Numbered from the stretch's first letter, positions 20,474-58,695 are shown. The stretch: 59,242 nucleotides of DNA from a virus (IMGVR_UViG_3300046170_000277:1-59242), one strand, 5' to 3'. Translations and numbers: made by a program. The notes: a model not told the origin generated them from the letters alone.

Positions 20474-20521
20474 GCTTCAAGTGAAGCATCGAAGGCACCC
20501 AGGAAGATGCCTTCTGTGCTT
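20474..20521 (-). repeat. Structured post-stop-codon element, copy 1 of 10
   Basis: - strand: TGA gtc AAGCA CA GAAGGCATC..GGTGCCTTC GA TGCTTCA ct TGAAGCA, then the AACCCAAACC box. Confidence 0.9.
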
Positions 20522-20524
20522 GAC

Positions 20525-20854
20525 TCAGTAGCAGTAGTCTGCAGATGACCAGTTGGCCCTGGTAGCTGTGAACACGTTTCCACGTGCACAGTTCTTGGTT
20601 GGGCTTTTCCAATCTCTGGGCTTCAGAATATCCCCAGATTTGAACTTGCCATCATCCTTGATGCAGATGAATGAATGAACGCTAGTGCCAGCAAAAACCT
20701 TGATGTATTTCTTGCCAGTTTCAGCACTCAGTGACTTCTGGAAGCGTTCCTGCTGTGTGGCTTTCCACTCAGCATCTGCGATGTCACTGCTGAACGTGTT
20801 GTAGTCTGCGCTGATCAGATTCAGATAATTTTGAATTGCTGTTTGAAGTTCCAT
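20525..20854 (-). CDS. Conserved phage early protein
   Basis: GKKYIKV...SVHSFI...GDILKP.DWKSP.K..RGNVF motif. Confidence 0.8.
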   Translation of the reverse strand: MELQTAIQNYLNLISADYNTFSSDIADAEWKATQQERFQKSLSAETGKKYIKVFAGTSVHSFICIKDDGKFKSGDILKPRDWKSPTKNCARGNVFTATRANWSSADYCY

Positions 20855-20913
20855 TTGTCTGCTCCGAAAGTGGTTTGGGTTTGTGTTGGCTGTGTTGCCA
20901 ACCTCTGAATCTA

Positions 20914-20942
20914 ATTCTATACACACCACGTGAACATTGCAA
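20914..20942 (-). promoter_or_regulatory. sigma70-like early promoter with operator
   Basis: TTGCAA-17 bp-TAGAAT; TACACACCACGTGAA at 20920-20934. Confidence 0.8.
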
Positions 20943-20950
20943 GGAAAAAA

Positions 20951-21256
20951 TCACATTGCGGCTATTTTTGTTTTCAGATGCTCTGGAACCTGCTTTTCAT
21001 TCCAGTTTCGTGTCAGTGTCACGATATGGGTCAAAGCCTGTTCCACTCCACAGCCCAGAAAGAAAGATCTGAACCCTTCATCATCCACCTGTGATCTTCC
21101 TGGCCCATCAAATCCATATTTAGTCAGGTCAGTTTTGGTGTTTAGATAGTAGCACTTGGCACCATAACGTGTACCACTAACCACCACCTTTGGCAGTGTC
21201 AGGTCAGTCTTCAGACCAAGAACAATCAGTTTGATGAATAGCTGGTTGAATTGCAT
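20951..21256 (-). CDS. Hypothetical early protein
   Basis: GGAG SD after element copy 2. Confidence 0.65.
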   Translation of the reverse strand: MQFNQLFIKLIVLGLKTDLTLPKVVVSGTRYGAKCYYLNTKTDLTKYGFDGPGRSQVDDEGFRSFFLGCGVEQALTHIVTLTRNWNEKQVPEHLKTKIAAM

Positions 21257-21288
21257 GTTGGCTCCAATGGTTTGGGTTTGGGTTGTTT

Positions 21289-21337
21289 GCTTCAAATCGA
21301 AGCATCAAAGCCACCCTGGTGGATGGCTTTTGTGCTT
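21289..21337 (-). repeat. Structured element, copy 2
   Basis: AAGCA CA AAAGCC..GGCTTT GA TGCTTC gattt GAAGCA. Confidence 0.9.
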
Positions 21338-21345
21338 TGGTCTGA

Positions 21346-21573
21346 TTATCCCCAAGTGATCAAGATGGTGTGCTTGTGTTCCTCTGTGGCAATGGCCCAT
21401 GCCTTTGCTGTGTAGCCCTTGTATTCCATCCTGTTGCTGAAAGGGTTGAAAGTCTTGGCAACCTTCAAGCCTGCTTCCTCGCAAGCCTTGGCAACCTTCT
21501 TGTCTGCACCAATGTAGGCATAGCCATTGTTTGCATTCTTGATTTTGTTAATTGCTGATTTTGCTCGTTCCAT
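21346..21573 (-). CDS. Hypothetical early protein
   Basis: First gene after the promoter at about 21631-21659. Confidence 0.65.
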   Translation of the reverse strand: MERAKSAINKIKNANNGYAYIGADKKVAKACEEAGLKVAKTFNPFSNRMEYKGYTAKAWAIATEEHKHTILITWG

Positions 21574-21630
21574 TTTTGAATCCTGGTTTGTGGTTTGGGT
21601 TTGTTGCCCTGTGTCGCAACGTCTGAGTAT

Positions 21631-21659
21631 ATATTTACACACTACGTGAAAGACTGCAA
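21631..21659 (-). promoter_or_regulatory. Early promoter with operator
   Basis: TTGCAG -35, AT-rich -10, TACACACTACGTGAA at 21636-21650. Confidence 0.7.
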
Positions 21660-21675
21660 GGAAAAAATGAAATAT

Positions 21676-21987
21676 TTATTCATCTTTAAACCATTCAACA
21701 ATTCGTGTGATCAGTATTCCTTGAACAGCATAGAAAAAAACAATGATGATACCAGCAGCCACAGTTTCCAAAAAAGTGGTGTACCAGGGAACCAGAAAGC
21801 CGGATTCAATTGGGATCATTTCCAGATGCAAAAGCAGAAGAAATGGTGGCATTACAAACAGTGTGAAGCCAATGCCAAACAAGCTGGCCATGATAGTGCC
21901 ACCAATCACCATGAATGCTAATTTCAGCAGGATGAAGGGCACAGCAAAGATGGCACCCAGGATGAAAAGAAAAAAATTTATCATCAT
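21676..21987 (-). CDS. Multi-pass membrane protein
   Basis: Three hydrophobic segments; GGAG SD. Confidence 0.65.
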   Translation of the reverse strand: MMINFFLFILGAIFAVPFILLKLAFMVIGGTIMASLFGIGFTLFVMPPFLLLLHLEMIPIESGFLVPWYTTFLETVAAGIIIVFFYAVQGILITRIVEWFKDE

Positions 21988-22015
21988 TGTCTCCAGTGGT
22001 TTGCGGTTTGGGTTT

Positions 22016-22064
22016 GCTTCAAATCGAAGCATCAGCACCACCATTGCTGATGATGCTTGTGCTT
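22016..22064 (-). repeat. Structured element, copy 3
   Basis: AAGCA CA AGCATC..GGTGCT GA TGCTTC gattt GAAGCA. Confidence 0.9.
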
Positions 22065-22068
22065 AGAT

Positions 22069-22389
22069 CTAGAATCCAAATTTGTGCCGCATGGCGTTGT
22101 CAAACCACTTGGCTTCCACTGGCCCATGCTCAATCACTTCACCATAGACTTTGGAACTGATCACAGCATTCTTATAGATCACATAGGCTGTGACATAGCC
22201 ACCAAGTCTGGCCTGTGGGTCTGTCATGTACCTTTCTTTGAACATCTTGTTTGCGTAGCGTTTGGCACCCAGAAGATTTCCTTCATAGCTGAATTCTTCT
22301 CTGGTTTGATAATCCCCTGGCACTGGCCCACGTGCCTTCAAAATGATTTTAAAAAACCATTTAAAGCCCTTCAGATCTTCATGGTTCAT
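22069..22389 (-). CDS. Hypothetical early protein
   Basis: Bounded by element copies 4 and 3; YEGNLLGAKRYA resembles YEGTFLGAKKAA of 23701-24042. Confidence 0.65.
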   Translation of the reverse strand: MNHEDLKGFKWFFKIILKARGPVPGDYQTREEFSYEGNLLGAKRYANKMFKERYMTDPQARLGGYVTAYVIYKNAVISSKVYGEVIEHGPVEAKWFDNAMRHKFGF

Positions 22390-22418
22390 GTTCTGTCTCT
22401 GTTGATGGTTTGGGTTTG

Positions 22419-22465
22419 GCTTCAAGTGAAGCATCGAAGGCACCACTTGGGTGCCCTCTGTGCTT
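22419..22465 (-). repeat. Structured element, copy 4
   Basis: AAGCA CA GAGGGCACC..GGTGCCTTC GA TGCTTCA ct TGAAGC. Confidence 0.9.
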
Positions 22466-22468
22466 GAC

Positions 22469-22825
22469 TCAGTAACCCCAGAAGCCTTCAGTCAGGGTGA
22501 AGGGCTTGTTCCAGTTGCCCACGCTCCAGTGCTCGTAATAACCAACATCAAAGTAGTCAGTCATGTGGTCACTGTTGTCATGGTTGGCCACTGTCTCATG
22601 AACCAGCTTTCGCATTTTCACCAGGATGTTGCCATCAGCGTATTTTTCCAGGTTGAAGTAGTTCAGTTGCGTGTATTCTTCACACCCAAAGTTAGTGGGG
22701 CCAGCCAGGATGGTGATGTTCACACCACTGCAGTGGTGCTTGGTCACTGAAAGTTTGAACTTTGGGAAAGCTTTTTTCAGTGCTGTTCTGATCTTCTTAA
22801 CTTGGTCTGAGTTGATGTAAGCCAT
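22469..22825 (-). CDS. LPD29-like phage early protein
   Basis: MAYI...KIRTALKKAFPKFKLSV...V.ITILAGP...SDHMTDYFDVGYY motif. Confidence 0.7.
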   Translation of the reverse strand: MAYINSDQVKKIRTALKKAFPKFKLSVTKHHCSGVNITILAGPTNFGCEEYTQLNYFNLEKYADGNILVKMRKLVHETVANHDNSDHMTDYFDVGYYEHWSVGNWNKPFTLTEGFWGY

Positions 22826-22888
22826 TGATTGTCTCTGTGGTTGGTTTGGGTTTGTGCTGCAGCCTCATTGCCGCAACCTCTGATTATA

Positions 22889-22917
22889 ATATTACACACC
22901 ACGTGAAAGAAGTGCAA
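22889..22917 (-). promoter_or_regulatory. Early promoter with operator
   Basis: TTGCAC-17 bp-TAATAT; palindrome at 22893-22907. Confidence 0.8.
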
Positions 22918-22939
22918 GGGTTTTTTCACTTTTTTTTAA

Positions 22940-23194
22940 TCAGCCAAAAGTTATTCGGAGATTGTCTGGCTGATTCATGTTGTCTGATCCACTCCAGAGC
23001 CAGTTTACCTGGACACCTTCAGCATCTTCCATTTCAGCCATGTCATCATCCATCCACTCTTCAAGTTCTTCCCTGACTTCTTTCTTGGTCACAGCAAAAA
23101 GGAATTCATCACAGATCTCTCCATTCTTTGTGAAAGGTCTGGGCGTGGAAATGAAGATTTTGTTGGCCTGCTTGATTGCATCTTTTAAGGTCAT
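22940..23194 (-). CDS. Acidic hypothetical protein, paralog of 2338-2562
   Basis: AGGAG SD; D/E-rich C-terminal half. Confidence 0.65.
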   Translation of the reverse strand: MTLKDAIKQANKIFISTPRPFTKNGEICDEFLFAVTKKEVREELEEWMDDDMAEMEDAEGVQVNWLWSGSDNMNQPDNLRITFG

Positions 23195-23231
23195 GATTCT
23201 GCTCCTGTGCTGGTTTTGGTTTGGGTTCAAG

Positions 23232-23278
23232 GATCCACTAAGTGAATCATCAGAGCCACCAGGGTGGCCCTTGTGATT
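23232..23278 (-). repeat. Structured element, copy 5 (AATCA variant)
   Basis: AATCA CA AGGGCCACC..GGTGGCTCT GA TGATTCAC tta GTGGATC. Confidence 0.85.
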
Positions 23279-23281
23279 GAC

Positions 23282-23593
23282 TCAGGCTGGAGTGGTGCCA
23301 CCCTTGCCATCATACTTGTGATGGGCTTTGATGGCCCACTTGTCAAAGATGGGCTGGCCATCTGGTGTTTCATCTGTGGCAATGTAGGCCACAGTTTTCA
23401 GCACCTTGCCATATCTGAAACCATCCAGTGTCCAGATCAGATGTGGAAGCTGGTCTTTGTGATCAGCACCCCATCCAGCTTCCTCCAGGTTGGTGCTGTA
23501 TTCAAACAGCACTGACGTTTCCTTGTTGTCGAAACGTCCCAGGATGGAACCGTTGCCAACGTTGAAGTAGGTGGTGCTTGATGCGTGTGCCAT
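23282..23593 (-). CDS. Conserved phage hypothetical protein
   Basis: LFEYS...PHLIWT..GFRYGKVLKTVAYIATDE motif. Confidence 0.7.
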   Translation of the reverse strand: MAHASSTTYFNVGNGSILGRFDNKETSVLFEYSTNLEEAGWGADHKDQLPHLIWTLDGFRYGKVLKTVAYIATDETPDGQPIFDKWAIKAHHKYDGKGGTTPA

Positions 23594-23654
23594 TTGGAAA
23601 CTCCGAAGGTGGTTTGGGTTTTGGGTGCCGCTCTGTGCTGCACCCTATGAATAT

Positions 23655-23683
23655 AATATATTTCACGTGGTGTGAAAAAGCAA
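23655..23683 (-). promoter_or_regulatory. Early promoter with inverted operator
   Basis: TTGCTT-17 bp-TATATT; TTCACGTGGTGTGAA at 23662-23676 is the reverse complement of the copy at 24392. Confidence 0.75.
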
Positions 23684-23700
23684 GGAAAAAAAATAGTTTT

Positions 23701-24042
23701 TTATCTGCAGTGCCACTTGGTGGCCATTTCATAGTCATCAGTCTTGTTTTTTTCCATCCACATGACTTTGGATCCTTCCACAGTGTTGTACCATCTGGAG
23801 CCATTATCATACTTGTTCACCTTGCCATGCCTTTTGCCAGATGTGGCCAGCCATTTGGTATCCAGAAAAATTTCAATGGCTGTGAATGGATGGGTGTGGT
23901 TGCATTCAGCCAGTAACTTGAAGGCTGCTTTTTTTGCACCCAGGAAAGTTCCTTCATAGATCTTGATGGATAGTTCTGTGTCAGCTTTGAATTTTGCAGA
24001 AATAACTTTGTTTGAAACTATTTTGATGGTGAACTTTTTCAT
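23701..24042 (-). CDS. Hypothetical early protein
   Basis: Follows element copy 6. Confidence 0.65.
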   Translation of the reverse strand: MKKFTIKIVSNKVISAKFKADTELSIKIYEGTFLGAKKAAFKLLAECNHTHPFTAIEIFLDTKWLATSGKRHGKVNKYDNGSRWYNTVEGSKVMWMEKNKTDDYEMATKWHCR

Positions 24043-24074
24043 GGTGCTGTTCCTGGTTTGGGTTTGGGTTGTTT

Positions 24075-24123
24075 GATTCTGAATGAATCATCAGCACCAC
24101 CCTGGTGGATGGTGCTTGTGATT
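24075..24123 (-). repeat. Structured element, copy 6 (AATCA variant)
   Basis: AATCA CA AGCACC..GGTGCT GA TGATTC attca GAATCA. Confidence 0.9.
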
Positions 24124-24126
24124 TAC

Positions 24127-24330
24127 TCAGAGAGTGATGACGTGAACAAATTCACCATTCTTGGCTGATCTGTAGAACATGGCATGCTTGGTTCCTTTGG
24201 CGTTTACTCCATTGTAAACATCACCATCAAACCCTTGGCTGATCAGATGTGCTTTCAAGTTGGGTCTGTCACCAGATTGCTTTGTCAGAGTGAAAACTGT
24301 TTTGTTCTTGGTTGCTGTTAAGTTTGTCAT
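24127..24330 (-). CDS. Hypothetical early protein
   Basis: AGGAG SD; first gene after the promoter at about 24387-24415. Confidence 0.65.
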   Translation of the reverse strand: MTNLTATKNKTVFTLTKQSGDRPNLKAHLISQGFDGDVYNGVNAKGTKHAMFYRSAKNGEFVHVITL

Positions 24331-24386
24331 TTTGTTTCTCCTGGTTGGTTTGGGTTTGTGCTGCTCTGTGCTGCACTGTTGAAATA

Positions 24387-24415
24387 ATTATTTCACACCA
24401 CGTGAAATAGTGCAA
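24387..24415 (-). promoter_or_regulatory. Early promoter with operator
   Basis: TTGCAC -35, AT-rich -10, TTCACACCACGTGAA at 24392-24406. Confidence 0.7.
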
Positions 24416-24903
24416 GAACTTTTTTCAACTTTTTTCTGGATTCCACCATTGTGTTTGTCCTGACTGGCTTTCTCCAGGTTGCGTTTCAAGCTGTAGTCAA
24501 CTGGCTGATAAAATGGGCCACGTGAAAAAGCCTTCACTGCCCTTGCTGCTGCCATCAATGGGTTTTCATCCAGTGGTTGGAACTTGTGGCTGCACTGGCG
24601 CATCATGAATGCCCTGGTGTCCCTTTTGGAGATCACCAGAATGGTTTCTTCCTTTGGCTTTCCATTCGTGAAAGATGGGTGCTGAAAAAGCCTGCTGACT
24701 TTCCAGATGTTTTTCACCCTTTGCCAGCTTGTACGTGTTTCCAGAAGCTTGGCCTGCATCATTTCCTGGCCATCTGGATCATACAAAAACATTCTGTTGA
24801 AGATAGATGATGGTGGTGAATAGCTGTGGATGGTGCAGGCATTGGGCAGCACACAGATGGTTCTGTGCAGTCTGGAATTCTTGACCATCGTGTAGAATTG
24901 CAT
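24388..24903 (-). CDS. Hypothetical early protein
   Basis: GGAG SD after element copy 7; the 3' end runs into the next promoter, so the end is uncertain. Confidence 0.55.
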   Translation of the reverse strand: MQFYTMVKNSRLHRTICVLPNACTIHSYSPPSSIFNRMFLYDPDGQEMMQAKLLETRTSWQRVKNIWKVSRLFQHPSFTNGKPKEETILVISKRDTRAFMMRQCSHKFQPLDENPLMAAARAVKAFSRGPFYQPVDYSLKRNLEKASQDKHNGGIQKKVEKSSCTISRGVK

Positions 24904-24929
24904 GATGTCTCCATGTTTGGGTTGGGTTT

Positions 24930-24977
24930 GCTCTAAGCAGAGCATCAGCACCACCCTGGTGGATGGTGCTTGTGCTT
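24930..24977 (-). repeat. Structured element, copy 7
   Basis: AAGCA CA AGCACC..GGTGCT GA TGCTCT gctt AGAGCA. Confidence 0.9.
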
Positions 24978-24980
24978 GGC

Positions 24981-25217
24981 TCAGATGTCTGCTGCTTTCG
25001 CTAGGTTGCTGCAGACTGTTTTGAAGTAGTCCTTCAGTTCCTGGTTGGTCTGAAGCTTCCACTGGAGTTCAGAATTTGAAAGCCTTGCTGACTTAGCAAA
25101 AGCATCAAAAACTGTTGGCCCACATGTGCATTCTTTGGCAGTCATTCCCAATTCCAGAGAAAGTGCACCAAGGAATCTGCAGATTGCTTCACGTTCTGGG
25201 CTGAGTTGAATTTCCAT
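24981..25217 (-). CDS. Hypothetical early protein
   Basis: GGAG SD; downstream of the promoter at about 25277-25305. Confidence 0.65.
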   Translation of the reverse strand: MEIQLSPEREAICRFLGALSLELGMTAKECTCGPTVFDAFAKSARLSNSELQWKLQTNQELKDYFKTVCSNLAKAADI

Positions 25218-25276
25218 CTTGTCTCCATTGGTTTGTGGTTTGGGTTGGGTTGGCTTTGCTGCCAACCACTGTGTAT

Positions 25277-25305
25277 ATCATTACACACTGTGTGAAACAG
25301 TGCAA
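25277..25305 (-). promoter_or_regulatory. Early promoter with operator
   Basis: TTGCAC -35; TACACACTGTGTGAA at 25282-25296. Confidence 0.65.
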
Positions 25306-25312
25306 GGGTTTT

Positions 25313-25492
25313 TTATCTTTTTTTTGCCAGCCTGGGCACTGCTGAAGTTCTTTTCCTTCCCAGGTATCTGCATTTCATTTCCAGACTTCCAGAAGGGCAG
25401 GAAATCCTTCTTTTGAATCTTCTGTCCAGTTCCACAATTCTTTCGTAGTCCATTCGGTAGTAGTTTGGATCAATCATCAATGCTTCATTCAT
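25313..25492 (-). CDS. Small basic hypothetical protein
   Basis: ATG follows element copy 8 and the leader box; 59 aa. Confidence 0.45.
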   Translation of the reverse strand: MNEALMIDPNYYRMDYERIVELDRRFKRRISCPSGSLEMKCRYLGRKRTSAVPRLAKKR

Positions 25493-25520
25493 GGTCTGTC
25501 TCTTTGGTGGTTTGGGTTTG

Positions 25521-25570
25521 GCTCTGAAAGTAGAGCATCAGCACCACCCTGGTAGATGGTGCTTGTGCTT
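25521..25570 (-). repeat. Structured element, copy 8
   Basis: AAGCA CA AGCACC..GGTGCT GA TGCTCT actttc AGAGC. Confidence 0.9.
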
Positions 25571-25575
25571 TACTC

Positions 25576-25827
25576 TTAGATGTTTGGATCCTTGACTGCA
25601 TCGCATATCCAAGCACATCCTGTCCATGCTGGCCACTCTTCACCATCATCATCAGTGAAGGTTCCATCTACTGTGGCTTCTGCATATACTTCATCAGCAG
25701 TGAAGTAAACCATGAAGGCTTCCACACCATCTGCTGCTTCATTCCAGATGAACTTCTTTGCTTCAAAAGCTGTGTTGAAGGTGGCTTTTGAAAACATGGT
25801 TTGAACTTCGATTGCTTGATTCATCAT
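25576..25827 (-). CDS. Acidic hypothetical early protein
   Basis: First gene of the island, after the promoter at about 25885-25913. Confidence 0.65.
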   Translation of the reverse strand: MMNQAIEVQTMFSKATFNTAFEAKKFIWNEAADGVEAFMVYFTADEVYAEATVDGTFTDDDGEEWPAWTGCAWICDAVKDPNI

Positions 25828-25884
25828 GGTCTGTCTCGTTTGGTGGTTTGGGTTTGTTCTGCGTTGTGCCGAACTGTTGAAATA

Positions 25885-25969
25885 ATTATTACACACCATG
25901 TGAAAGAATACAAGGGGAAATATTCACTTTTTGAAAAAAACTTTGTTTTCACTGTCCACACTGTGTGAA
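25885..25969. promoter_or_regulatory. Early leftward promoter plus a second operator-like site toward the capsid gene
   Basis: TTGTAT -35 with palindrome 25890-25904; TCCACACTGTGTGAA at 25955-25969 just before a rightward TTGACA. Confidence 0.6.
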
Positions 25970-26129
25970 CAGATAGGCTTGACAACTGCATTCAGACTGC
26001 TAATAGCTATTAGCTAAAATTCTTCATTGCTGCTGGTGCTCTGGTCTACGGTGTAGCCCAAGAACGTCAAGCACACTCAGACGGGGTCTGAGGTTCCTAC
26101 GAATCAACCCTGTTTTTGAGAGTGCTAAA

Positions 26130-27089
26130 ATGGCTGCAACACGTCTTTCTGATGTAATAGTTCCAGAAGTATTTGCCCCATATACAGTCCAGCGTTCTGC
26201 TGAACTTTCAATTCTTGCCCAAAGCGGACTACTCACCACAAATTCAACCCTGCAGGGGATGATCAATGGTGGTGGATCTACGTTCAATCTACCGTTTTTC
26301 AATGATCTATCTGGTTCAGATGAACTGATTGAAGATGGCACAGCCATCACAGTCAACAACATCACCACAGACCAGCAAATTGGGGTATCCCTGGCACGTG
26401 CAAAAGCCTGGGGTTCTAGCTTCCTGGCTCAGTATGTTTCTGGGGAAGATCCAATGGCAGTCATTGGTGATCTGGTGGCCCAGTATTGGGTACGCAGAGA
26501 GCAGGACACAGTCCTGGCCATCCTTGGTGGTTTGTTTGGTGCTGGTGGCCCACTTACCCAGGCCAGTCACAGCCATGTGAACACACAGGGCACCACAGCC
26601 ATTGACAATGACATGATGATTGACACGGTCAAATTGCTTGGTGATGCGTATGGCCAAGTTTCCACCATTGTGTGCCACAGCCACATCTATCACGCATTGA
26701 GAAAGCTGGATCTGGTGCAGTATGTTTCAGAGCCATCTGGCTTGAATCTGAACCAACCAACTTACATGGGCATGAGGATCCTGGTGGATGATGGAGTGCC
26801 AGAAAGTGGTGGATCCTATACCAGCTATGTTTTTGCACCTGGGGCCATCATGTATGCCAACGCCAACCTGGATGCACAGGATTCTGTTGAAGTGGATCGT
26901 GATTCACTCAGGTCAGAAGATGTGTTGATCAACAGAAAAAGATGTATCTATCACCCAGTTGGCTTCAAGTGGTCAGGAACTGCTGTTGGAGCCACACCAA
27001 CCAATGCTGAACTAGGTGCTGCAGGATCGTTCACTGCTGTTTATGAAAGCAAGAACATTCCGATGGTGGCACTGACCAGTGGGGTCTGA
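26130..27089 (+). CDS. Major capsid protein
   Basis: TRLSDVIVPEVF, GGSTFNLPFFNDL, RAKAWG, DPMAVIGDLVAQYW, TYMGMRILVDD and HPVGFKW motifs. Confidence 0.9.
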   Translation: MAATRLSDVIVPEVFAPYTVQRSAELSILAQSGLLTTNSTLQGMINGGGSTFNLPFFNDLSGSDELIEDGTAITVNNITTDQQIGVSLARAKAWGSSFLAQYVSGEDPMAVIGDLVAQYWVRREQDTVLAILGGLFGAGGPLTQASHSHVNTQGTTAIDNDMMIDTVKLLGDAYGQVSTIVCHSHIYHALRKLDLVQYVSEPSGLNLNQPTYMGMRILVDDGVPESGGSYTSYVFAPGAIMYANANLDAQDSVEVDRDSLRSEDVLINRKRCIYHPVGFKWSGTAVGATPTNAELGAAGSFTAVYESKNIPMVALTSGV

Positions 27090-27091
27090 CA

Positions 27092-27304
27092 ATGGGCATG
27101 ATTAGCTTTCGGGATGTTGACACGAAAAAGCCCATTCGGCCCCAGAGTGAGCCTATTCAAAAACAGACCACTGCTGCTGTGTCCAGTCAGACTCCTGCAG
27201 TAGAAGCAAAGCCTATTGAAGACAAAGCTGAAGAGAAGCCAGCACCACGTCAACGTGGGGGTAAAACTTCATTTGCAGCACCAGAAAAGGATAGCAGCAA
27301 GTGA
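27092..27304 (+). CDS. Small low-complexity protein after the capsid gene
   Basis: Starts 2 bp after the capsid stop; MGMISFR N-terminus. Confidence 0.55.
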   Translation: MGMISFRDVDTKKPIRPQSEPIQKQTTAAVSSQTPAVEAKPIEDKAEEKPAPRQRGGKTSFAAPEKDSSK

Positions 27305-27511
27305 AAAGGGTGAGCAGTGCAGATTGGTTGGTCTATCTCACCTCAGAGCCAGTGAATGGATTCACACCAAGAGCACCCAAGGCACTGCCCACTTCAATGT
27401 TGATTCTGGAAAGCATCCTTTGCATTCCCGTTCTGGTTTCTTTGATCATCTTGATTCCACCATGCTTTCTGGCAGCAATGCTGATGCGTGGTGGCATCAG
27501 TTTTCTGAAAC

Positions 27512-50819: not shown

Positions 50820-51127
50820 CCAACACTTTTTTCTGGATTGTGTTGGCTTTGCAACCTGGCGAATTTCCAAGCATTCAGATCAATAATTTCATGTCAAGCT
50901 GTGGCATGAGTGTGCGAACAGAATTGATGAAAAGTGGCTGGCCACAGTATCCTGCAACACTGCAAGCAGTTCAGCAGTGTTCATGTGTACTGGACAAGAT
51001 CAGAACAGACCACAGTCATCATGAATATGTGTACTTGAAACCTGCTGAACAGAAAAAGCTTTCACTAAAATATGCTTATGAATGCGTAGGCTTAGAAAAA
51101 AAGCAGGAGAATACAGAACCAATCTGA
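50816..51127 (+). CDS. Exported Cys-containing hypothetical protein
   Basis: Hydrophobic N-terminus; C...CSCVLDKIR...C. Confidence 0.6.
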   Translation: MTNTFFWIVLALQPGEFPSIQINNFMSSCGMSVRTELMKSGWPQYPATLQAVQQCSCVLDKIRTDHSHHEYVYLKPAEQKKLSLKYAYECVGLEKKQENTEPI

Positions 51128-51172
51128 CTTTGTTACCTGGGGCACTTTATAAACTGGAATCTAAGAGGCTAA

Positions 51173-51703: not shown

Positions 51704-51740
51704 TTCTTTGAACATTAAATATTTCACATCATGGGAATAG

Positions 51741-51911
51741 ATGGAAGACAGAAGGGGTAATCCTGGCAGAAGAAGAAGTGATCCAAGTGCTGAAAGGTTG
51801 GTGGATTTAGTCACCCAAGTTCTTGGATCCTTAGAGGGTATTGCTTTGGCTATTGGTGAAGTCAGAAAAGAAATAGCAGAGCAAAACAAGCGGACTGATG
51901 GGGGGCATTAG
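51741..51911 (+). CDS. Small hypothetical protein
   Basis: MEDRRGNPGRRRSDPSAERLVDLV..., 56 aa. Confidence 0.45.
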   Translation: MEDRRGNPGRRRSDPSAERLVDLVTQVLGSLEGIALAIGEVRKEIAEQNKRTDGGH

Positions 51912-51961
51912 TTCATGTTTTTTTCATGGGGCATTTTTCAAACTCCACCTGGAGCAATTAA

Positions 51962-52324
51962 ATGACAGTGAAATCTTTTGATTTTGAAATAGTGCAGCAG
52001 CAAACCCATGACCTGGAAGTTGAATTCTATGATGCAGACAATCTGCCCAGAGCACTAACAGGGTTTGACTTTAAGCTGGACGCAAAGATAAATCCCAACT
52101 CACCAGAAACTGTGTTCAGCCTGACCAGTTCATCTGGCCAGATTGCTATTGATGGAACGGACACACACAAGCTTCATCTGTTGATAGATCACAGCATGTC
52201 CAAGCAGTTAAGCTTCACCAAAGCCTACTATGATCTGATCCTGTTTGACTCAGGAAAAACCACAGTGGAAGTGATCATGAGTGGCACCGTGACGTTGTCC
52301 AAGACCATCACACGTCTTCCATAA
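51962..52324 (+). CDS. BppU N-terminal-like virion protein
   Basis: DFEI.Q...LTGF...YYDL...V...GTV pattern. Confidence 0.65.
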   Translation: MTVKSFDFEIVQQQTHDLEVEFYDADNLPRALTGFDFKLDAKINPNSPETVFSLTSSSGQIAIDGTDTHKLHLLIDHSMSKQLSFTKAYYDLILFDSGKTTVEVIMSGTVTLSKTITRLP

Positions 52325-52379
52325 AAACCAAGGATCCTGGGCTTTCTTGGCCCAGGTATTCACATCATGGATATAGATC

Positions 52380-52754
52380 ATGGCAATTGTGGAATCATCA
52401 GAACATTTTTCCAGGGATGAATTGGCCTGCAGACACACAGATATTTGCTTGATGGAAGAATCTTTCCTTCAGAAGCTTGAAGCTATTCGTGAAGAATATG
52501 GAAAGCCCATGCGAATCACCAGTGCGTTCAGAGATGAAACCCATCCAGCCCAGGCCAGAAAATCCAACCCCAAAATGGGCTACCATACAAAGGGAAGAGC
52601 AGTGGATGTGCTGATCAGAGGAACTGATGCAGTGATCCTGCTGGAGATTGCTTTGAAGCATGGAATGCGTGGCATTGGAATCAATCAAAAAGGTGGATCT
52701 GGGCGTTTTCTTCATTTCGATGACCGTGACGAATATATGATTTGGAGTTACTAA
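52380..52754 (+). CDS. Endolysin, peptidase M15 family
   Basis: HFSRDELAC, ITSAFR, HTKGRAVD and FLHFD zinc peptidase motifs. Confidence 0.9.
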   Translation: MAIVESSEHFSRDELACRHTDICLMEESFLQKLEAIREEYGKPMRITSAFRDETHPAQARKSNPKMGYHTKGRAVDVLIRGTDAVILLEIALKHGMRGIGINQKGGSGRFLHFDDRDEYMIWSY

Positions 52755-52951
52755 TGGTCACAATAGTCACAATCATTTATGTGGCTGCTGTTGCGTGGCC
52801 ATTCGTGTACTGGATGACCAACTGATGCTGGTGTTTTGGTATCTGTATTTTGCTCTCATAGTTTGGGCAGGAACTACAGACACAATCATTTCACAGCCAG
52901 TTCAGTGTGGTCTGTATAATTGCTGAAACGAGGACAACCGAATGGGGCAGA

Positions 52952-53254
52952 ATGAAAACTTGGATTATACTTTTGGCAGGTTTGCTGGTTGGCTGTTCTG
53001 ATGGTGGAGGAACTAAAGACACAGAAAAGTCACCACCCATCAACATCAACATTTCCAACGTCAATGGGAATGAAATTGAAGTCAGGTTGAGTAGTAAGGA
53101 AGCAGGGGATAATGTGACAGTCACCACCACAGTCACACAGTCAGACAATGAAACAGAAGTCGAGTGCACTGTCTTGAGCAGTGACAATGGCTCTGACAAT
53201 GTGACCTGTCCAGACAATGTAACAGCAGGGCTGAAACTATGGTTGGACTACTAA
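52952..53254 (+). CDS. Predicted lipoprotein
   Basis: MKTWIILLAGLLVG|C lipobox; in the lysis region. Confidence 0.65.
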   Translation: MKTWIILLAGLLVGCSDGGGTKDTEKSPPININISNVNGNEIEVRLSSKEAGDNVTVTTTVTQSDNETEVECTVLSSDNGSDNVTCPDNVTAGLKLWLDY

Positions 53255-53616
53255 CACCACTGATCAGTTTGGCCACAACATGGTTTGATGGTCAGCAAAA
53301 AAAGAGTGAAGCCAAAGTCCAGGCTGAAGTAGCACTCAAACAGGCTGAAGCTGAAGTGTTCAAGCGGAAGGCAACATCAGAAGCTGATTGGGATCTGGAA
53401 GCCATGCGTGGTTCCCAGGGTAGTTGGAAAGACGAAGTGCTCCTGGTTGTTTTTCTGGTGCCATTTTTAGCCAGTTTCATTGGGCCACTTCAGCCTTATG
53501 TTGTGGCTGGTTTTGGAATCCTGGCAGACACACCAGAATGGTACAGATATTCTCTGGGAGTGATGGTTGCAGCCAGCTTTGGGGTCAGGAATTTCATGAA
53601 GGTGATGAAGAGGTAA
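53239..53616 (+). CDS. Holin-like membrane protein
   Basis: SWKDE then two TM segments, P.WY and ASFG.R motifs. Confidence 0.7.
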   Translation: MVGLLTPLISLATTWFDGQQKKSEAKVQAEVALKQAEAEVFKRKATSEADWDLEAMRGSQGSWKDEVLLVVFLVPFLASFIGPLQPYVVAGFGILADTPEWYRYSLGVMVAASFGVRNFMKVMKR

Positions 53617-53617
53617 C

Positions 53618-54031
53618 ATGGCAACAGCAGCAGCAACCAAAAACAAGCCAGCCTTGTGGAAGCGGATTGTTGCACAGGTTAAGTCAGAGAATACTGCAGG
53701 CACTGGAAGTGGTCGCTGGAGTGCCAGGAAAGCACAGTTGGCAGTGGCCAGATACAAAAAAGCAGGCGGATCCTACAAGGGCCGCAAAAGTGGAAAAAAC
53801 TCTTTAAGTAGATGGTCAAAACAGAAATGGAGAACTTCAGACGGTTCACCATCCAGATCAAAGGGCAAAGCCACCAAACGCTACTTACCAGACAAAGCCT
53901 GGAAGTCGATGTCCGCTTCAGAGAAGCGTTCAGCTAACAGATCCAAGGCTGCTGGTGATCGCAAAGGCAAGGCTGTGGTCAGCCTACCAAAGAAGCTGAA
54001 GAAGAAGGTGGCAAGACATCGAAAAGGCTGA
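53618..54031 (+). CDS. DUF5872-like basic protein
   Basis: G.WSARKAQL....YKKAGG.Y, L..W.KQKWRT and RYLP..AW motifs. Confidence 0.8.
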   Translation: MATAAATKNKPALWKRIVAQVKSENTAGTGSGRWSARKAQLAVARYKKAGGSYKGRKSGKNSLSRWSKQKWRTSDGSPSRSKGKATKRYLPDKAWKSMSASEKRSANRSKAAGDRKGKAVVSLPKKLKKKVARHRKG

Positions 54032-54085
54032 ATGGAAGTTAGTGGAAGGGCTGTGGTGTTCTGGGCTTGGGGCGTTAAATGCTCA

Positions 54086-54126
54086 GAAGGCACGTCAGCA
54101 GCCTTTTTCCACTGACAGGTGCCTTC
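54086..54126. terminator. Hairpin between convergent late and early transcription units
   Basis: GAAGGCAC-GTCAG...CTGAC-(AG)-GTGCCTTC; no clear U tract. Confidence 0.4.
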
Positions 54127-54156
54127 AATTGATCTTCAGAAGAAATCCTGCTGAAG

Positions 54157-54387
54157 CTAGTTCTGAATGATCAAATCCTCCCATTTGAATCTGGTGCTAC
54201 AGCCAGGAAGTTCATCATCCAAATTTTTTCTGATACTCATTGGCAACTGGCGCATGGCTTGATTTTGAACTGTCTTGATCAGCTTGCCCTTGCTTGAATT
54301 CTGCAGCAAATTTTCCTCCACTTCCACATCCACCAGCACACTGGTCTGTTTCACCATTTCCACTGGAACACGTACCTGGATTTTCAA
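54157..54387 (-). CDS. Hypothetical protein
   Basis: TTG start overlaps the HNH stop; GGAGG SD. Confidence 0.5.
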   Translation of the reverse strand: MKIQVRVPVEMVKQTSVLVDVEVEENLLQNSSKGKLIKTVQNQAMRQLPMSIRKNLDDELPGCSTRFKWEDLIIQN

Positions 54388-54905
54388 GCGGCCTCCCTGG
54401 TTCTGCGATTGTTGTTTTGCGTCTTTGCATCTGCCCACCTGAGATTTCCTGGTTCATAGTTTCCATCATTGTTGATGCGGTCTAATGAATGGCCATCTGG
54501 TCTTGGGCCAAGCTTGGTTTCTATCCATGTGACAAAGGCTTCTGCATCATTGAACCACGCAGGATCCATTTGAATGCCACGTCCACCATAGTCTTTGAAG
54601 CGTTTGTGATTTGGGTTGGTGGTTATTTGTTTGATCCGATTCCAGATTGAGTACAAACGGTGATATGCTAGGCCATGCTTTGTGGCATACTGCTGACCTT
54701 TATGCCTTTCAGAAGTGAGTTCACGTTGTAAGCAGCCACAGCTTTGAGTTTTGCCACTTCTAAGAAGCCTTCCATCTACAACTTTCATGGTTCCACAATC
54801 ACACTGGCAAAGCCATTTAGCCATACCACGTTTGCTGTTTTCGGCACGTTCCAGAACCACCAATCTGGTGAAGAGTTTTCCAGTTAAGTCTTTTAATGCG
54901 CTCAT
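54384..54905 (-). CDS. HNH homing-type endonuclease with N-terminal Cys domain
   Basis: DLTGK.F.RL.V, WLCQCDCG, SCGC, YGGRGI and SLDRINNDGNYEPGNLRWAD...N.N. Confidence 0.9.
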   Translation of the reverse strand: MSALKDLTGKLFTRLVVLERAENSKRGMAKWLCQCDCGTMKVVDGRLLRSGKTQSCGCLQRELTSERHKGQQYATKHGLAYHRLYSIWNRIKQITTNPNHKRFKDYGGRGIQMDPAWFNDAEAFVTWIETKLGPRPDGHSLDRINNDGNYEPGNLRWADAKTQNNNRRTREAA

Positions 54906-54931
54906 AATTTCAGAAGTAGTTTTGGGTGGGG

Positions 54932-55083
54932 TAGAAGCAGGACAGCTTGGAAGACGTAGGCAGAAGTGGATGTCACAACATAAACACCCACAAAATCTTC
55001 TGTATTGCTTTGGCACAACATGGGTTCCAGATGGCCGATAGCTTGACATCTGGCAGATAAAAAAGCCTTGGCCCTGCTTCCTA
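54932..55083 (-). ncRNA. Candidate multibranched structured RNA in the leader of the HNH gene
   Basis: Closing stem GAAGCAGGGC/GUCCUGCUUC encloses three hairpins; G-U pairs favour the - strand; TTGACA upstream at 55104-55109. Confidence 0.5.
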
Positions 55084-55143
55084 TCAACCACACCAGGGAT
55101 TACTGTCAAAAAGAAATGCAGTGATGTGGTCAATTCCTGGTAT

Positions 55144-55596
55144 TCAGATGGTGACTGGTGTGGATCCTTCTGGCACTTCTGCCACTTCTGGGTCAGATGG
55201 TGCTTTCAGATCCAGGGTGGCTTGTGCTTCAGCTTCAGCCTGTTGTTTCTTGGCAATTTCAGTGGCTTCTTCCATAGCTTCTTCAATCACTTCTGGTGTG
55301 ACAGGTTCTGGCTCTGGTTTGGTTTCCACCACGTTCCATGATTGGATCAGTTGTCCAGCCAGTTCTGTGGTGCAGTCCAGAAGCACTTTGTTGTCATTGC
55401 CATTCTTGAAGCCAACCATGATTTGAAGCCTTTGAATGCCATTGCCCAGATCTTCAGAATCCACCACAGGATGGTTCTTTTCTGGGTTCACCAGCTTGGG
55501 TGCATGTTGAAGGGAAAGCCCTTTCTTCTCCAGTTGTGCTTCATGGGCTGCTTCCAGTGCCAGCAGCAGGTTTTCAGTGTTGATGGTTTTGGTCAT
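55144..55596 (-). CDS. Acidic hypothetical protein
   Basis: AGGA SD; operon context. Confidence 0.6.
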   Translation of the reverse strand: MTKTINTENLLLALEAAHEAQLEKKGLSLQHAPKLVNPEKNHPVVDSEDLGNGIQRLQIMVGFKNGNDNKVLLDCTTELAGQLIQSWNVVETKPEPEPVTPEVIEEAMEEATEIAKKQQAEAEAQATLDLKAPSDPEVAEVPEGSTPVTI

Positions 55597-55606
55597 TTGG
55601 ATCCTT

Positions 55607-56074
55607 TCACCAAGTTTGTGGATCTGGCTGGTCAAAGTTGAACCACCAGCCAATCAGATTCTCATCCATGTCATGCCATCCAGCCCAATGTGGCTTCCCA
55701 AAACGGTAGCCATCTGGCTTGTTGGGACTGTTGTCAATCACATCCATCATTTCATCAAACAGAAAAAGGCATTCATCATTGTATTCTTCACCTTCCCTGG
55801 CCCAGAAAAGATGATCATGATTCTGGAAAGCTTCCACAGGCACAGGAAAATCATCAGCCTTGATCAACTGAGCCAGTGCCATTGGATGGCAGAACAGCAT
55901 TTCCTTCAGCAGTGCTGTGAAAACTGTGTAGGCTGAATCTGTTTGGAAGGTGCAGATGATTTTGTTTTCCAGCCCAGAATCCAGATCCAAGTGCTTCATG
56001 ATATTGCTCTGATGAGCCAGGAAGTCATCCCTGTGGTGCAAGTAAATCTGCAGACCTTTCGTGAATTCTAACAT
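55607..56074 (-). CDS. Acidic hypothetical protein
   Basis: PDGYRFG...IGWW motif; overlaps the upstream stop. Confidence 0.65.
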   Translation of the reverse strand: MLEFTKGLQIYLHHRDDFLAHQSNIMKHLDLDSGLENKIICTFQTDSAYTVFTALLKEMLFCHPMALAQLIKADDFPVPVEAFQNHDHLFWAREGEEYNDECLFLFDEMMDVIDNSPNKPDGYRFGKPHWAGWHDMDENLIGWWFNFDQPDPQTW

Positions 56075-56502
56075 GCTACTTCCAGGGCTAGTGATGGCTG
56101 AATTTCTTCCACCTGGAAGCAGTCTTTCAGCATTGCTTCAACAGTGGTGATGGGTCGAAGTCTGGAATCAAAACACAGCTTGTATCCACGCACCTGGAGC
56201 AGTCCACGCAATCCTTCCCAGGATGTTCTGCGTATTCTGCGTTTTACTTTCTTGAAGTTCTGGAAGACATCTTCAGCAGTGATTTGCCAAGCACCTTGAT
56301 GATAAATCAGCAGTGCGTTGTTTGATGGTGGCCAGGATGTTCTTCTGAGTTCCAGCCTGGGTTCTTTGCGTTGTCGATCACCCAAAGAAATCACCAACTT
56401 CTTTCCACCCTTCCGTAGAGTATGGCCAGCTTCACGCTCTATCTGCCACATCAATCTGGCCAACAGATCCACGTTCAGCCAGATCCTTTTGTTTGGTTCC
56501 AC
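56068..56502 (-). CDS. Basic hypothetical protein
   Basis: GGAG SD and AAACCCAAACC leader. Confidence 0.6.
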   Translation of the reverse strand: MEPNKRIWLNVDLLARLMWQIEREAGHTLRKGGKKLVISLGDRQRKEPRLELRRTSWPPSNNALLIYHQGAWQITAEDVFQNFKKVKRRIRRTSWEGLRGLLQVRGYKLCFDSRLRPITTVEAMLKDCFQVEEIQPSLALEVAC

Positions 56503-56523
56503 ATGTTCTCCAATGGTTTGGGT

Positions 56524-56748
56524 TTAGTACACAAACCAGATGAAGCGTTCACCCACTTCAAAGGTTGTGCAGGCATCACATGGTTGACGTGATGCTTTCA
56601 ATGCCCTGGCACTGTCAGCAGATTCCAGGGCACCAAGTAAATTGATTCTCTTCAGTCCACTTTTAATGTTCCTGTCAGCCGATTGCCCACCAGATTGTGC
56701 GTGGTGGCAGGCTTTGCACAGCAACAGGTGCTGCTTGACTTTCAGCAT
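56524..56748 (-). CDS. Small Zn-finger-like protein
   Basis: CKAC...PCDAC....GERF. Confidence 0.6.
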   Translation of the reverse strand: MLKVKQHLLLCKACHHAQSGGQSADRNIKSGLKRINLLGALESADSARALKASRQPCDACTTFEVGERFIWFVY

Positions 56749-56996
56749 AAATAGGTTGCAGCAATTGGCGCATGGCAGCAGAACGCTTCATGTTCCAGTT
56801 TTGTTTTGCTCTCCAATGGTTAGAAATCTTTCTTGGTATAATAGTCATCCAATGACTCCAGTGAAGGTTTGGGTTAGTTGTCTATCCACTTCATGTGAAT
56901 AAAGACCGTGAACGTGACAGTGGGGAGTTGAGAAAACCACTGCATTGTTTCGCCACCACCTGGATTGGGAGGGAGAAACCAAAGGGAGAAGTCATG

Positions 56997-57197
56997 TCAG
57001 AAGGGCAACTTCTGATTCATGAATTGGGTGAAAGTCCAGGTGGTAGTTCTCACGGTCTTCAGTGCCTGCACTCTGAGGTTCTCTGACTTGCCCAGATGAA
57101 GAACTAGCAAGCCATCTTCCACCCAGACAACAGCCAGGGCTGGCTGCTCTATGGGTGACACAGTCTGAAGCAGACTATGCACTTCACGTGTATTCAT
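56997..57197 (-). CDS. Hypothetical protein
   Basis: Starts 1 bp after the upstream stop. Confidence 0.5.
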   Translation of the reverse strand: MNTREVHSLLQTVSPIEQPALAVVWVEDGLLVLHLGKSENLRVQALKTVRTTTWTFTQFMNQKLPF

Positions 57198-57198
57198 G

Positions 57199-57408
57199 TC
57201 AATCTGTTTCCACCAGATTCATCATCAGATTGTGCTGTTCACACATGTGATGAAGTTGATCCCAATCACCAATGACTCTGACTTTGGTGGTGTTGGTCTT
57301 TCTGTCCTGGGTGGCTTTGAGTGCTTGAAATCCATGAACACGTGATAGTGTCAGGATTGCCTGCCAATGCAGTTGGCCATGAATATGAAGCAGTTGCTGT
57401 GATTGCAT
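57199..57408 (-). CDS. Hypothetical protein
   Basis: AACCCAAACC leader and AGGA SD. Confidence 0.55.
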   Translation of the reverse strand: MQSQQLLHIHGQLHWQAILTLSRVHGFQALKATQDRKTNTTKVRVIGDWDQLHHMCEQHNLMMNLVETD

Positions 57409-57575
57409 GGTGATCTTCCTGGTGGTGGTTTGGGTTGTGTGCTGGCCCTTAAAATCCCAGCACACTACTTGAAAGGTGGCGTTCCTCAACAACACCATTC
57501 AAGGTTCATCAAGAATAACAAATCAGTTCTGATCAATCAAGTCAAATTACTGATTTAATTATTCTTATCATGGTT

Positions 57576-57947
57576 TTAGGCTGGCACTGCTTCAGCAGTT
57601 GTCACACCAAGCTTTTCCAGCTTTTGGGTGTTAGCCAATAAGCTTTCCAGGTGCTTGATTCTGTCCAGCAGCAATTGCTTTTCCTCATTTTCCAGCTTCT
57701 TTGTTGAACGCATTCCGCCAATCCCATACAGCAGCCATTGTGTGTTGTAGCCCAGACGTGCAAGGCCAGCCAGCACACTTTTGGGAATATCACGTTCACA
57801 GTTAGGGTGAAGAATATTTCCCAGAACCTGTGGGCTGATGCCCAGGGCTTCACACCATGCTGTTTTGGTGTGGTATGGGCTGCTTTCGTAGATTTGCATC
57901 AGCCTTTCAATCACTGCTGATCTAAAAGAGATTTTTTGATGTTTCAT
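57576..57947 (-). CDS. XRE-like HTH protein, paralog of the regulator at 2-322
   Basis: KTAWCEALGISPQVLGNIL...RDIPKSVLAGLARLGYNTQWLLYGIGGMR. Confidence 0.75.
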   Translation of the reverse strand: MKHQKISFRSAVIERLMQIYESSPYHTKTAWCEALGISPQVLGNILHPNCERDIPKSVLAGLARLGYNTQWLLYGIGGMRSTKKLENEEKQLLLDRIKHLESLLANTQKLEKLGVTTAEAVPA

Positions 57948-57984
57948 GGCACGTGTCTCCAGGTTTAGAGTTTCTAGTTGATAA

Positions 57985-58033
57985 GCTTCCAATTGAAGCA
58001 TCAGAGCCACCCTGGTGGATGGCCCTTGTGCTT
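57985..58033 (-). repeat. Structured element, copy 9
   Basis: AAGCA CA AGGGCC..GGCTCT GA TGCTTC aattg GAAGC. Confidence 0.9.
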
Positions 58034-58036
58034 AAA

Positions 58037-58615
58037 TCAGCACTTAACTGAATCATAGAGGTAAGTGGCTGCTTCCTGCAGTTCTTCAGCATACTTGCGT
58101 GGAAGATCAAACATCTTGGAATCATCACAGTAAGTGTGGCACAGATGCCCCCAATCTTTTCTGGCCCATCCAATGGTTTCCAGTGGGTAGCTATTCCCAT
58201 CAATCAGCTTGACCAGGGCAGTGAATCTGGTGCTGCCAGCTTTCTGAAGTTCCAGAATCTTGGCTTCCAGGGCTTCAGCACGTCTGTTTTGCATGAAGTC
58301 TTTGGAGTAGTCTGCCCACTCATGGGTTGGCTCCAGCCTTTTGAAGATTCTTGACCACTTCAGCAGATTGGTGACATGTGCGTGCTCACCAGATGCAGTC
58401 ATAGAACCGGATAGCATCAGATCCACACTGATGACTGTTTCACCTATGCTTTCCATGTAGGCTATTTCACCCACCACAGCTTCATTGATGCTGGTGTAGG
58501 TTGGTCTTTCCTCACCCATGCAGTTTTCATCTAGTTCACAGGTCAGTTCTGGTGTGTAGATGGTTGCGTTTTCGGTCTTGCTGGCTGACATGTAGAAAGT
58601 GATATATGCGCCCAT
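58037..58615 (-). CDS. Hypothetical early protein flanked by near-identical element copies
   Basis: AGGAG SD; 192 aa. Confidence 0.7.
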   Translation of the reverse strand: MGAYITFYMSASKTENATIYTPELTCELDENCMGEERPTYTSINEAVVGEIAYMESIGETVISVDLMLSGSMTASGEHAHVTNLLKWSRIFKRLEPTHEWADYSKDFMQNRRAEALEAKILELQKAGSTRFTALVKLIDGNSYPLETIGWARKDWGHLCHTYCDDSKMFDLPRKYAEELQEAATYLYDSVKC

Positions 58616-58645
58616 TGTGTTTCTCCTGGTGGTTGGTTTGGATTA

Positions 58646-58695
58646 GCTTCATGATTGAAGCATAAGAGCCACCCTGGTGGATGGCCCTTGTGCTT
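58646..58695 (-). repeat. Structured element, copy 10
   Basis: Differs from copy 9 at one base over about 47 bp. Confidence 0.9.

Follow-up and report, generated by a model that had tools for sequence, protein, structure and literature searches.

Eleven copies of a structured intercistronic RNA element in a seawater phage resemble T7/T3 RNase III sites and keep a second, competing helix

The stretch of DNA analysed here (the window) is a 59,242-bp virus record from IMG/VR (IMGVR_UViG_3300046170_000277:1-59242) with a completeness estimate of 68%, and our subject is a short structured RNA element that it contains in eleven copies. The window sequence is present in many seawater metagenome runs, and related seawater populations share 35-95% of the sequence words of the region examined. 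Its plus strand carries portal, head-morphogenesis and major-capsid genes, and its sole integrase gene (482-1669), which matches phage integrase PHROGs, adjoins a tRNA-Arg gene. The major capsid protein has no close relative in IMG/VR or the genome contigs, and its best relative from a cultured phage shows 41.6% identity; the carrier is an integrase-bearing tailed phage from seawater without close relative. A plus-strand ORF at 11529-12410 matches only profile positions 96-210 of the large-terminase ATPase domains; the N-terminal part of the terminase is either absent or encoded further upstream in a different frame. Small genes form two minus-strand arrays (19.4-25.9 kb and 56.6-59.0 kb). The first, consisting of accessory genes (minus strand, window 18000-26000), is situated within the head module, between a head-morphogenesis gene (14589-15728) and the major capsid gene (26130-27089). 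The array proteins are mostly without assigned function, although Pfam recognized an LPD29 domain and a DUF7717 among them. This accessory-gene island in the head module has its borders marked by the element and may be a cassette-exchange hotspot.

Two types of intergenic spacer alternate along the arrays. In promoter-type spacers, a sigma70-like promoter (TTGCAx-N16/17-TAxAAT-like) is followed by a 5-8 bp hairpin at about +1 to +6, a CCCAAACC box, a Shine-Dalgarno (SD) sequence and ATG, while element-type spacers begin with the element and continue with the same leader, SD and ATG. Since the two types alternate, the arrays are rows of promoter-gene-element-gene units, with one exception that reads promoter-gene-element-gene-element-gene. 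No terminator-like U run was seen between units in the arrays. The promoter-type region at 22843..22917 (minus strand), for example, has the promoter TTGCAC-N17-TAATAT, a 5' hairpin near the assumed start and the CCCAAACC leader. Nine further regions of this type have their -35 elements at 58986, 25913, 25305, 24415, 23683, 21659, 20942, 7825 and 6417. All ten promoters are near-consensus and contain, between -35 and -10, a short palindrome (CAC-N3/4-GTG, for example TTCACGTGGTGTG) that has the look of an operator shared under a single repressor. Over the whole window, 28 copies of the leader box CCCAAACC are found on the minus strand; the plus strand has none, and its structural genes do without the box. 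Two genes (starts 7376 and 7114) have identical leaders (7375-7430 and about 7115-7165, minus strand) with the usual order reversed, the CCCAAACC box preceding a GGGCUGGC-GAAA-GCUGGCCC hairpin.

All eleven copies of the element are on the minus strand, each between two small open reading frames (ORFs) of that strand, and the distance from stop codon to ATG across these spacers is 76-89 nt. When the window was searched with a covariance model of the copies (R1), exactly eleven matches were strong, each of them on the minus strand and with a score of 56-91 bits; the next minus-strand match scored 17.7 bits, and matches to the reverse complement reached at most 31.5 bits. Two of the weak minus-strand matches, at 4690-4805 (17.7 bits) and 5865-5965 (14.8 bits), are likewise long hairpins with internal loops; they have GAUGAACAGCA.../...UGCUGUUCAC in common, fold at -38 and -37.5 kcal/mol, and may be processing signals of another kind. 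Folded alone, every copy gave one long hairpin as its minimum-free-energy (MFE) structure (11/11), with 21 pairs plus 2x2 and 1x1 loops. From base to tip, this hairpin consists of P0 (4-6 bp), in which the stop-codon region pairs with the stretch between two downstream segments, b and c; a 1x1 mismatch; P1 (4-5 bp), a helix between an upstream segment, a, and b; a 2x2 CA/GA internal loop; and P2 (8-10 bp), capped mostly by an ACCA tetraloop. The folds have energies between -24.5 and -33.2 kcal/mol and z-scores between -3.0 and -7.0; for every copy, none of 200 shuffles folded as well as the native sequence. An earlier note on this DNA had reported ten copies, all of which lie where it placed them (what it gives as a start is, on the plus strand, the final base of segment c), and the eleventh is added here. 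Its segments a, b and c and the P2 variants it quoted are as it described them, but the stretch it took for a loop between b and c pairs with the stop region, and P2 is longer than its 6 bp.

Copy 1 (58646..58702) forms P0 with the stop codon UGA of gene 58699-58902; its internal loop is CA/UA, and b (GCUUC) is separated by a 6-nt loop from c (GAAGC). The same b and c are present in copy 2 (57985..58040), which follows gene 58037-58615 and precedes an atypical leader without the CCCAAACC box, in copy 7 (22419..22472), in copy 8 (22016..22071), which has the stop codon UAG, and in copy 10 (20474..20528), where the predicted T7-equivalent cut would fall between 20488 and 20487. Copies 3 (25521..25577) and 4 (24930..24984) carry b GCUCU and c AGAGC, and in copy 3 the b:c helix stays at 5 bp with P1 only 4 bp long. 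A three-way change distinguishes copy 5 (24075..24130), with a AAUCA, b GAUUC and c GAAUC, and copy 6 (23232..23285), with a AAUCA, b GAUUC, c GGAUC, a P2 of 8 bp and a b:c loop of 7 nt; this joint change (AAUCA/UGAUUC/G(A/G)AUC, in the copies at 24122 and 23277) had already been recognized in the earlier note. Copy 9 (21289..21344), with stop codon UAA just upstream of P0, is the best match of a T7-site model (20.7 bits), while copy 11 (19607..19660), the one absent from the earlier note, carries b GCUCA and c UGAGC and has the lowest R1 score (56.3 bits). Upstream of copy 11, one base at window 20074-20076 is missing from contigs of three seawater runs (X4, X6 and X7), and its absence would fuse ORFs 20442-20071 and 20114-19659 into a single gene that ends at this copy.

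The stop codon of the upstream gene lies inside P0 or 1-8 nt before it in 11/11 copies, and is UGA in 8/11, UAA in 2/11 and UAG in 1/11. A selenocysteine insertion (SECIS) or stop-readthrough element was rejected because the stops vary (UGA/UAA/UAG) and the in-frame extensions beyond them are irregular, at 1-113 codons. The invariant AUG in segment b was likewise rejected as a translation start: relative to the gene, it is in frame 0, 1 and 2 in 5, 4 and 2 copies, respectively.

Covariation across the copies agrees with the predicted fold. In an alignment fitted to the model structure (A3), 95.2% of 231 cells pair, compared with 30.6-44.6% when the partners are slid by 1-3 columns; double-sided changes occur in 12/21 pairs, and the covariation score was reached by 0/500 shuffles. 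G-U pairs account for 30/231 cells, and in 10/11 copies the RNA of the minus strand folds more stably than that of the plus strand (mean -26.8 vs -22.9 kcal/mol). These two observations place the structure at the RNA level on the coding strand, in agreement with the pairing on the transcribed strand claimed previously. While the stems vary with compensation, the pairs that close the internal loop do not change, nor do C13 and A40 within it, and A14 and G39 show at least 90% conservation. The P2 apex hardly varies, reading CCAUCC ACCA GGGUGG in 5 copies. Within the population, seawater-contig substitutions in copy 3 at 25554, 25558, 25563 and 25571 all keep minus-strand pairing. The eleven copies represent a genuine RNA element with strong structure and strand specificity.

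The elements are alike while the genes that flank them are unrelated: in an all-against-all comparison of 30 proteins, the array proteins were not paralogous to one another, the one flanking pair detected having an E-value of 2e-4. Duplication of a gene-plus-element unit was rejected on the same ground. Such an arrangement would be expected of a DNA-level recombination site that shuffles gene cassettes, like the promoter-early stem-loops (PeSLs) of T4-like phages or the attC sites of integrons, and the P2, a/b and c variants do occur in mosaic combinations. In addition, a single low-depth contig of run X4 joins copy 21289-21344 to the leader, at about 57955-57984, that follows copy 57985 and belongs to the helix-turn-helix (HTH)-like gene 57576-57947. 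The break is at the 3' end of c, so that this one contig shows a population variant with cassette reshuffling at the 3' edge of segment c; it lends some weak support to the gene-exchange site suggested in the earlier note. Even so, we regard a recombination site as very unlikely. The G-U pairs and strand asymmetry indicate RNA, exchange at repeats can be a by-product, and the junction comes from only that low-depth contig. Recombination at the copies looks like a consequence of repetition and not a selected function.

Neither of the two named systems fits the element itself. A PeSL combines a sigma70-like early promoter with a terminator stem-loop, according to the available text on T4-like phages (PMC2839356, PMC4122927), and PeSLs resemble our element in being short, conserved cassettes with a regulatory role that stand between small, unrelated and non-essential genes of plastic regions, where recombination between copies is plausible. 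Unlike PeSLs, however, the elements lack both promoter hexamers and a terminator-like U run, and PeSL identity was rejected; moreover, the promoter-type spacers of the window have the promoter before the hairpin, not after it. For integrons, the attC core motif is GTTRRRY, and an attC site has conserved R''/R' core ends with an integron integrase nearby. No core of this type was found at the element ends in alignment A3, and the only integrase of the window matches phage families, so attC identity was rejected as well.

Segment b, the five bases from G42 of the model, is also complementary to segment c. It occurs in the four types GCUUC, GCUCU, GAUUC and GCUCA, each with its own complement, and the b:c helix has its full 5 bp in 11/11 copies, with loops of 4-7 nt and only Watson-Crick pairs in 10/11. 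Both sides have changed in 3/5 of the b:c pairs, and when the downstream regions were permuted among copies, 11/11 was reached in 3 of 20000 trials. The pairs were counted by script; a covariance-model alignment (A4) misplaces c in 5 copies, so its figure of 73.6% paired is an artefact, and MAFFT applied to the b-to-c segments also left c unaligned. In the three copies with b GCUCU or GCUCA, P1 has lost its fifth pair and b:c has kept all five, so that b:c is under selection in its own right. P1 and b:c are mutually exclusive, since both use segment b, and compensatory change keeps both. This is as the earlier note had proposed, and neither pairing lacked covariation when checked in the 11 copies of this one genome.

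At equilibrium, the long hairpin is predicted to dominate, and b:c requires that the 5' strand be removed or occupied. When the 5' strand was blocked (first 15 nt) or cut away, b:c appeared in the MFE structure of 8/10 copies folded, the structure with the first 15 nt blocked being P2 plus b:c in these 8/10. A ribosome could provide such a block. Under this explanation, there is no cleavage; termination at the upstream stop would open P0 and P1 and let b:c form, a state that would alter how the next gene is translated or transcribed. The position of the stop codons in all copies, the response to a blocked 5' strand and the covariation of both pairings are in keeping with it. Nevertheless, the predicted accessibility of SD and AUG is equal in the full, 5'-blocked and cleaved states of 10 copies (for example, SD unpaired probability 0.46, 0.49 and 0.49), which means that no translational switch by unmasking is seen; SD masking was rejected on this result. 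Nor is b:c an intrinsic terminator, as no U run follows it. A purely ribosome-driven switch would further leave unexplained both the similarity to T7/T3 RNase III sites and the start of b:c at the homologous cut, described below, and we consider it unlikely. The conformational switch of the earlier note thus survives in part: the two exclusive pairings are there, and processing was among the roles it listed, whereas SD and AUG accessibility does not change and the long hairpin prevails at equilibrium.

No match to the whole window was obtained with Rfam at the gathering score, and at E≤1 the region 19400-26000 gave only one plus-strand match, which we took as chance. The earlier note had recognized no known RNA family; this holds for Rfam, but covariance-model searches revealed reciprocal matches to the RNase III signals of phages T7 and T3. 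Searched against the whole T7 genome (both strands, filters off), R1 found its best match at 5848-5921, with 19.1 bits (E 0.026) and a runner-up of 9.6 bits. This match lies between gene 1 (end 5822) and gene 1.1 (start 6007), and the available text of PMC6121014 places the R1.1 RNase III site between these two genes. The T3 record annotates ten stem-loops as 'RNase III recognition site', and the four best of 11 R1 matches to whole T3 are four of these ten: R4.7 (24.9 bits, E 0.0012), R1.1 (23.0), R6.5 (14.9) and R0.5 (12.5). Each of these top matches begins at the annotated first base of its site. In controls, R1 gave no match at E≤1 in 350,766 bases of 34 unrelated viral loci, and its best match in lambda scored 12.6 bits. 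This weak lambda match (L315 35451-35506, plus strand) falls between the N start and nutL; we take this region to be that of the N-leader RNase III hairpin, the match being on the opposite strand.

The search was also made in the other direction. A model (R3) of five T7 early sites, taken at coordinates that we assumed and that folded as expected, gave 9 matches in the window at E≤10, all on or overlapping element copies; six were on the minus strand, on 6 different copies, the best being that to copy 9. Around the loop, the elements and the T7/T3 sites have the letters ..CAAG..CAUC....GGUGGC..U.AUG.UU.. in common. In the alignment of R1 with T7, U5887 corresponds to model position 41. We take the T7 cuts to lie at 890, 1468, 3138, 5887 and 6448, with U5887 as the last base before the R1.1 cut and UAU|GAU as the bond. 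With U5887 at position 41, segment b would supply the first base of the downstream product. A flush 5-bp helix starts at the base of the equivalent cut in 11/11 copies, compared with 2/12 T3/T7 sites and 5.9% of random window positions.

The geometry of the element matches as well. Substrates of the E. coli enzyme comprise about two helical turns, and internal loops restrict RNase III to one bond, the resulting 3' hairpins stabilizing the upstream RNA, according to the available text of PMC3867540 and PMC1540722. The element, with about two helical turns and an internal loop between upper and lower stems, has this size. With the proximal- and distal-box rules of the E. coli enzyme, which may not be those of the host, the agreement is mixed: 8/11 copies have a U-G pair where the R1.1 distal box has one, but the neighbouring pair differs. 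The T7/T3 sites (R0.3-R18.5, with R1.1 as model substrate) and the element are further alike in their intercistronic position in transcripts made by host RNA polymerase, in the layout of lower stem, internal loop and upper stem of about 10 bp, and in that their covariance models pick each other out in both directions. They differ in their carriers, T7-like podoviruses on the one side and an integrase-bearing tailed seawater phage on the other; in the lower stem, which in the element includes the upstream stop codon; and in the conserved covarying b:c helix that the element has at its predicted new 5' end in 11/11 copies.

An invariant internal loop and a nearly invariant P2 apex could also be the mark of a binding site for a phage or host RNA-binding protein, serving as a translational operator or as a nut/put-like antitermination signal. 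We find this highly improbable: a scan of 39 window proteins revealed no RNA-binding or nuclease family, and the best external matches are RNase III sites. Furthermore, nut and put sites are placed just after promoters, and the elements are not.

Taken with the two exclusive structures, the similarity to T7/T3 sites makes it probable, in our judgement, that the elements are intercistronic processing signals of the RNase III type known from T7/T3, each with its own 5' cap hairpin built in, cleavage being predicted. In this pathway, the long hairpin would form in the nascent RNA, with P0 and P1 as lower stem, the CA/GA internal loop, and the 10-bp P2 as upper stem. Host RNase III would then make one cut on the 3' side of the internal loop, between U41 and G42 (..GAU|GCUUC..), and P2 would stay with the upstream message as a 3' hairpin. 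Segment b, the 3' strand of P1, having lost its partner, would pair with c, and the new 5' end of the downstream message would open directly into a 5-bp hairpin lying about 30 nt ahead of the AUG. The cut downstream message would thereby have the same 5' layout as primary transcripts from the neighbouring promoters. Consistent with this, the distance from c to AUG is 24-37 nt (median 30), and in the ten promoter-type leaders the hairpin-to-AUG distance is 27-31 nt in 9/10 and 29 by hand count in the tenth, for which the automatic count of 18 started from an ATG inside AATGGAG. Both 5' and 3' hairpins protect mRNAs in the systems described in the available parts of PMC7509114. It is from these likenesses that we infer that cleavage occurs, at which bond and by which enzyme, and that both hairpins protect. 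The predicted 5' hairpin recalls the ompA-type 5'-terminal stem-loops that stabilize bacterial mRNAs (Emory et al. 1992, cited in PMC7509114), which are also short, stand at the 5' end or a few nucleotides from it, and precede an unstructured leader and the SD; in the element, however, the hairpin would arise only through endonucleolytic cutting, from a strand previously engaged in the cleavage signal. The plastid intercistronic expression element (IEE; PMC2230500) is another short element by which polycistronic transcripts become stable, translatable monocistronic mRNAs, though in a different system and by a different mechanism. In Bacillus phage SP82, early mRNAs likewise have several conserved stem-loops between genes at which host RNase III cuts.

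The stop codon is in P0 or closely precedes it, so a terminating ribosome would melt P0 and P1. Terminating ribosomes are thus a possible trigger for refolding, and with the stop codon in the lower stem they could time or gate the cut.

Protection would not by itself call for a cut. The elements might be a passive stability device, in which the uncut hairpin is a barrier to 3' exonucleases, similar to repetitive extragenic palindromic (REP) sequences, and b:c is a separate, overlapping hairpin of the 5' untranslated region (UTR). The stability of the hairpins, together with the known protection of mRNAs by 3' hairpins (PMC7509114, in the parts available), speaks for such a barrier. It would, however, need neither the invariant internal loop nor the T7/T3-like flanking sequence, and the overlap of b with P1 is kept in 11/11 copies, in two of them by the joint change of three segments. 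A passive barrier therefore appears quite improbable to us.

Several points weigh against RNase III-type processing. The pair next to the U-G is an invariant C-G in the element and U-A in R1.1, and the internal loop is 2x2 (CA/GA), as opposed to the asymmetric loop of 4/5 nt that the available text of PMC6121014 gives for T7/T3. The scores of the T7/T3 matches are modest (12.5-24.9 bits), though clear in rank, and are due in part to generic hairpin dimensions. The covariation is drawn entirely from 11 paralogues of a single genome; as these probably exchange segments, it represents few independent events, and conversion may have spread a single three-way change to both copies 5 and 6. Finally, a related element was not found in any other record searched. 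A main-type pattern retrieved 62 stretches from IMG/VR, all chance matches on inspection, and a looser one at least 119, which were left outside the inspected set. The metagenome pattern (51 stretches) and the genome-contig pattern (39) gave no element-like hairpin among the 40 most stable, where the sole repeated match was a recurrent Bacteroidota RNA. A pattern of promoter/operator plus leader had no matches, and one element searched by blastn in 50,697 phage records had 8 matches, all taken as chance. A pattern of double leader box plus GGAG found 34 loci, mostly CCCAAA repeats, in which R1 finds nothing. In four of the unrelated IMG/VR viral contigs (L293, L298, L306 and L309), (CCCAAA)n runs stand directly before GGAG and ATG, and CA-rich leaders are therefore not unique to this phage.

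Despite these points, the element is best explained as a T7/T3-type signal with an addition, a conserved post-cleavage 5' hairpin, with cleavage as a prediction. Were this correct, T7-style RNase III signals would extend beyond T7-like coliphages and act as portable punctuation of operons in an unrelated, uncultured marine phage, and a single short sequence would encode the cleavage substrate as well as the protective 5' end of its product, a compact natural insulator part for use in synthetic operons. The addition suggests, more tentatively, a self-contained 'cut-and-cap' module, in which the 3' strand of an RNase III signal has been selected to refold into a hairpin flush with the new 5'-monophosphate end, and each cistron gains a protected leader like that of a primary transcript. 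The module would be a design of three strands (a, b and c) kept by three-way covariation, for which no precedent among RNase III sites was found in the literature searched. We hold it somewhat less likely than not.

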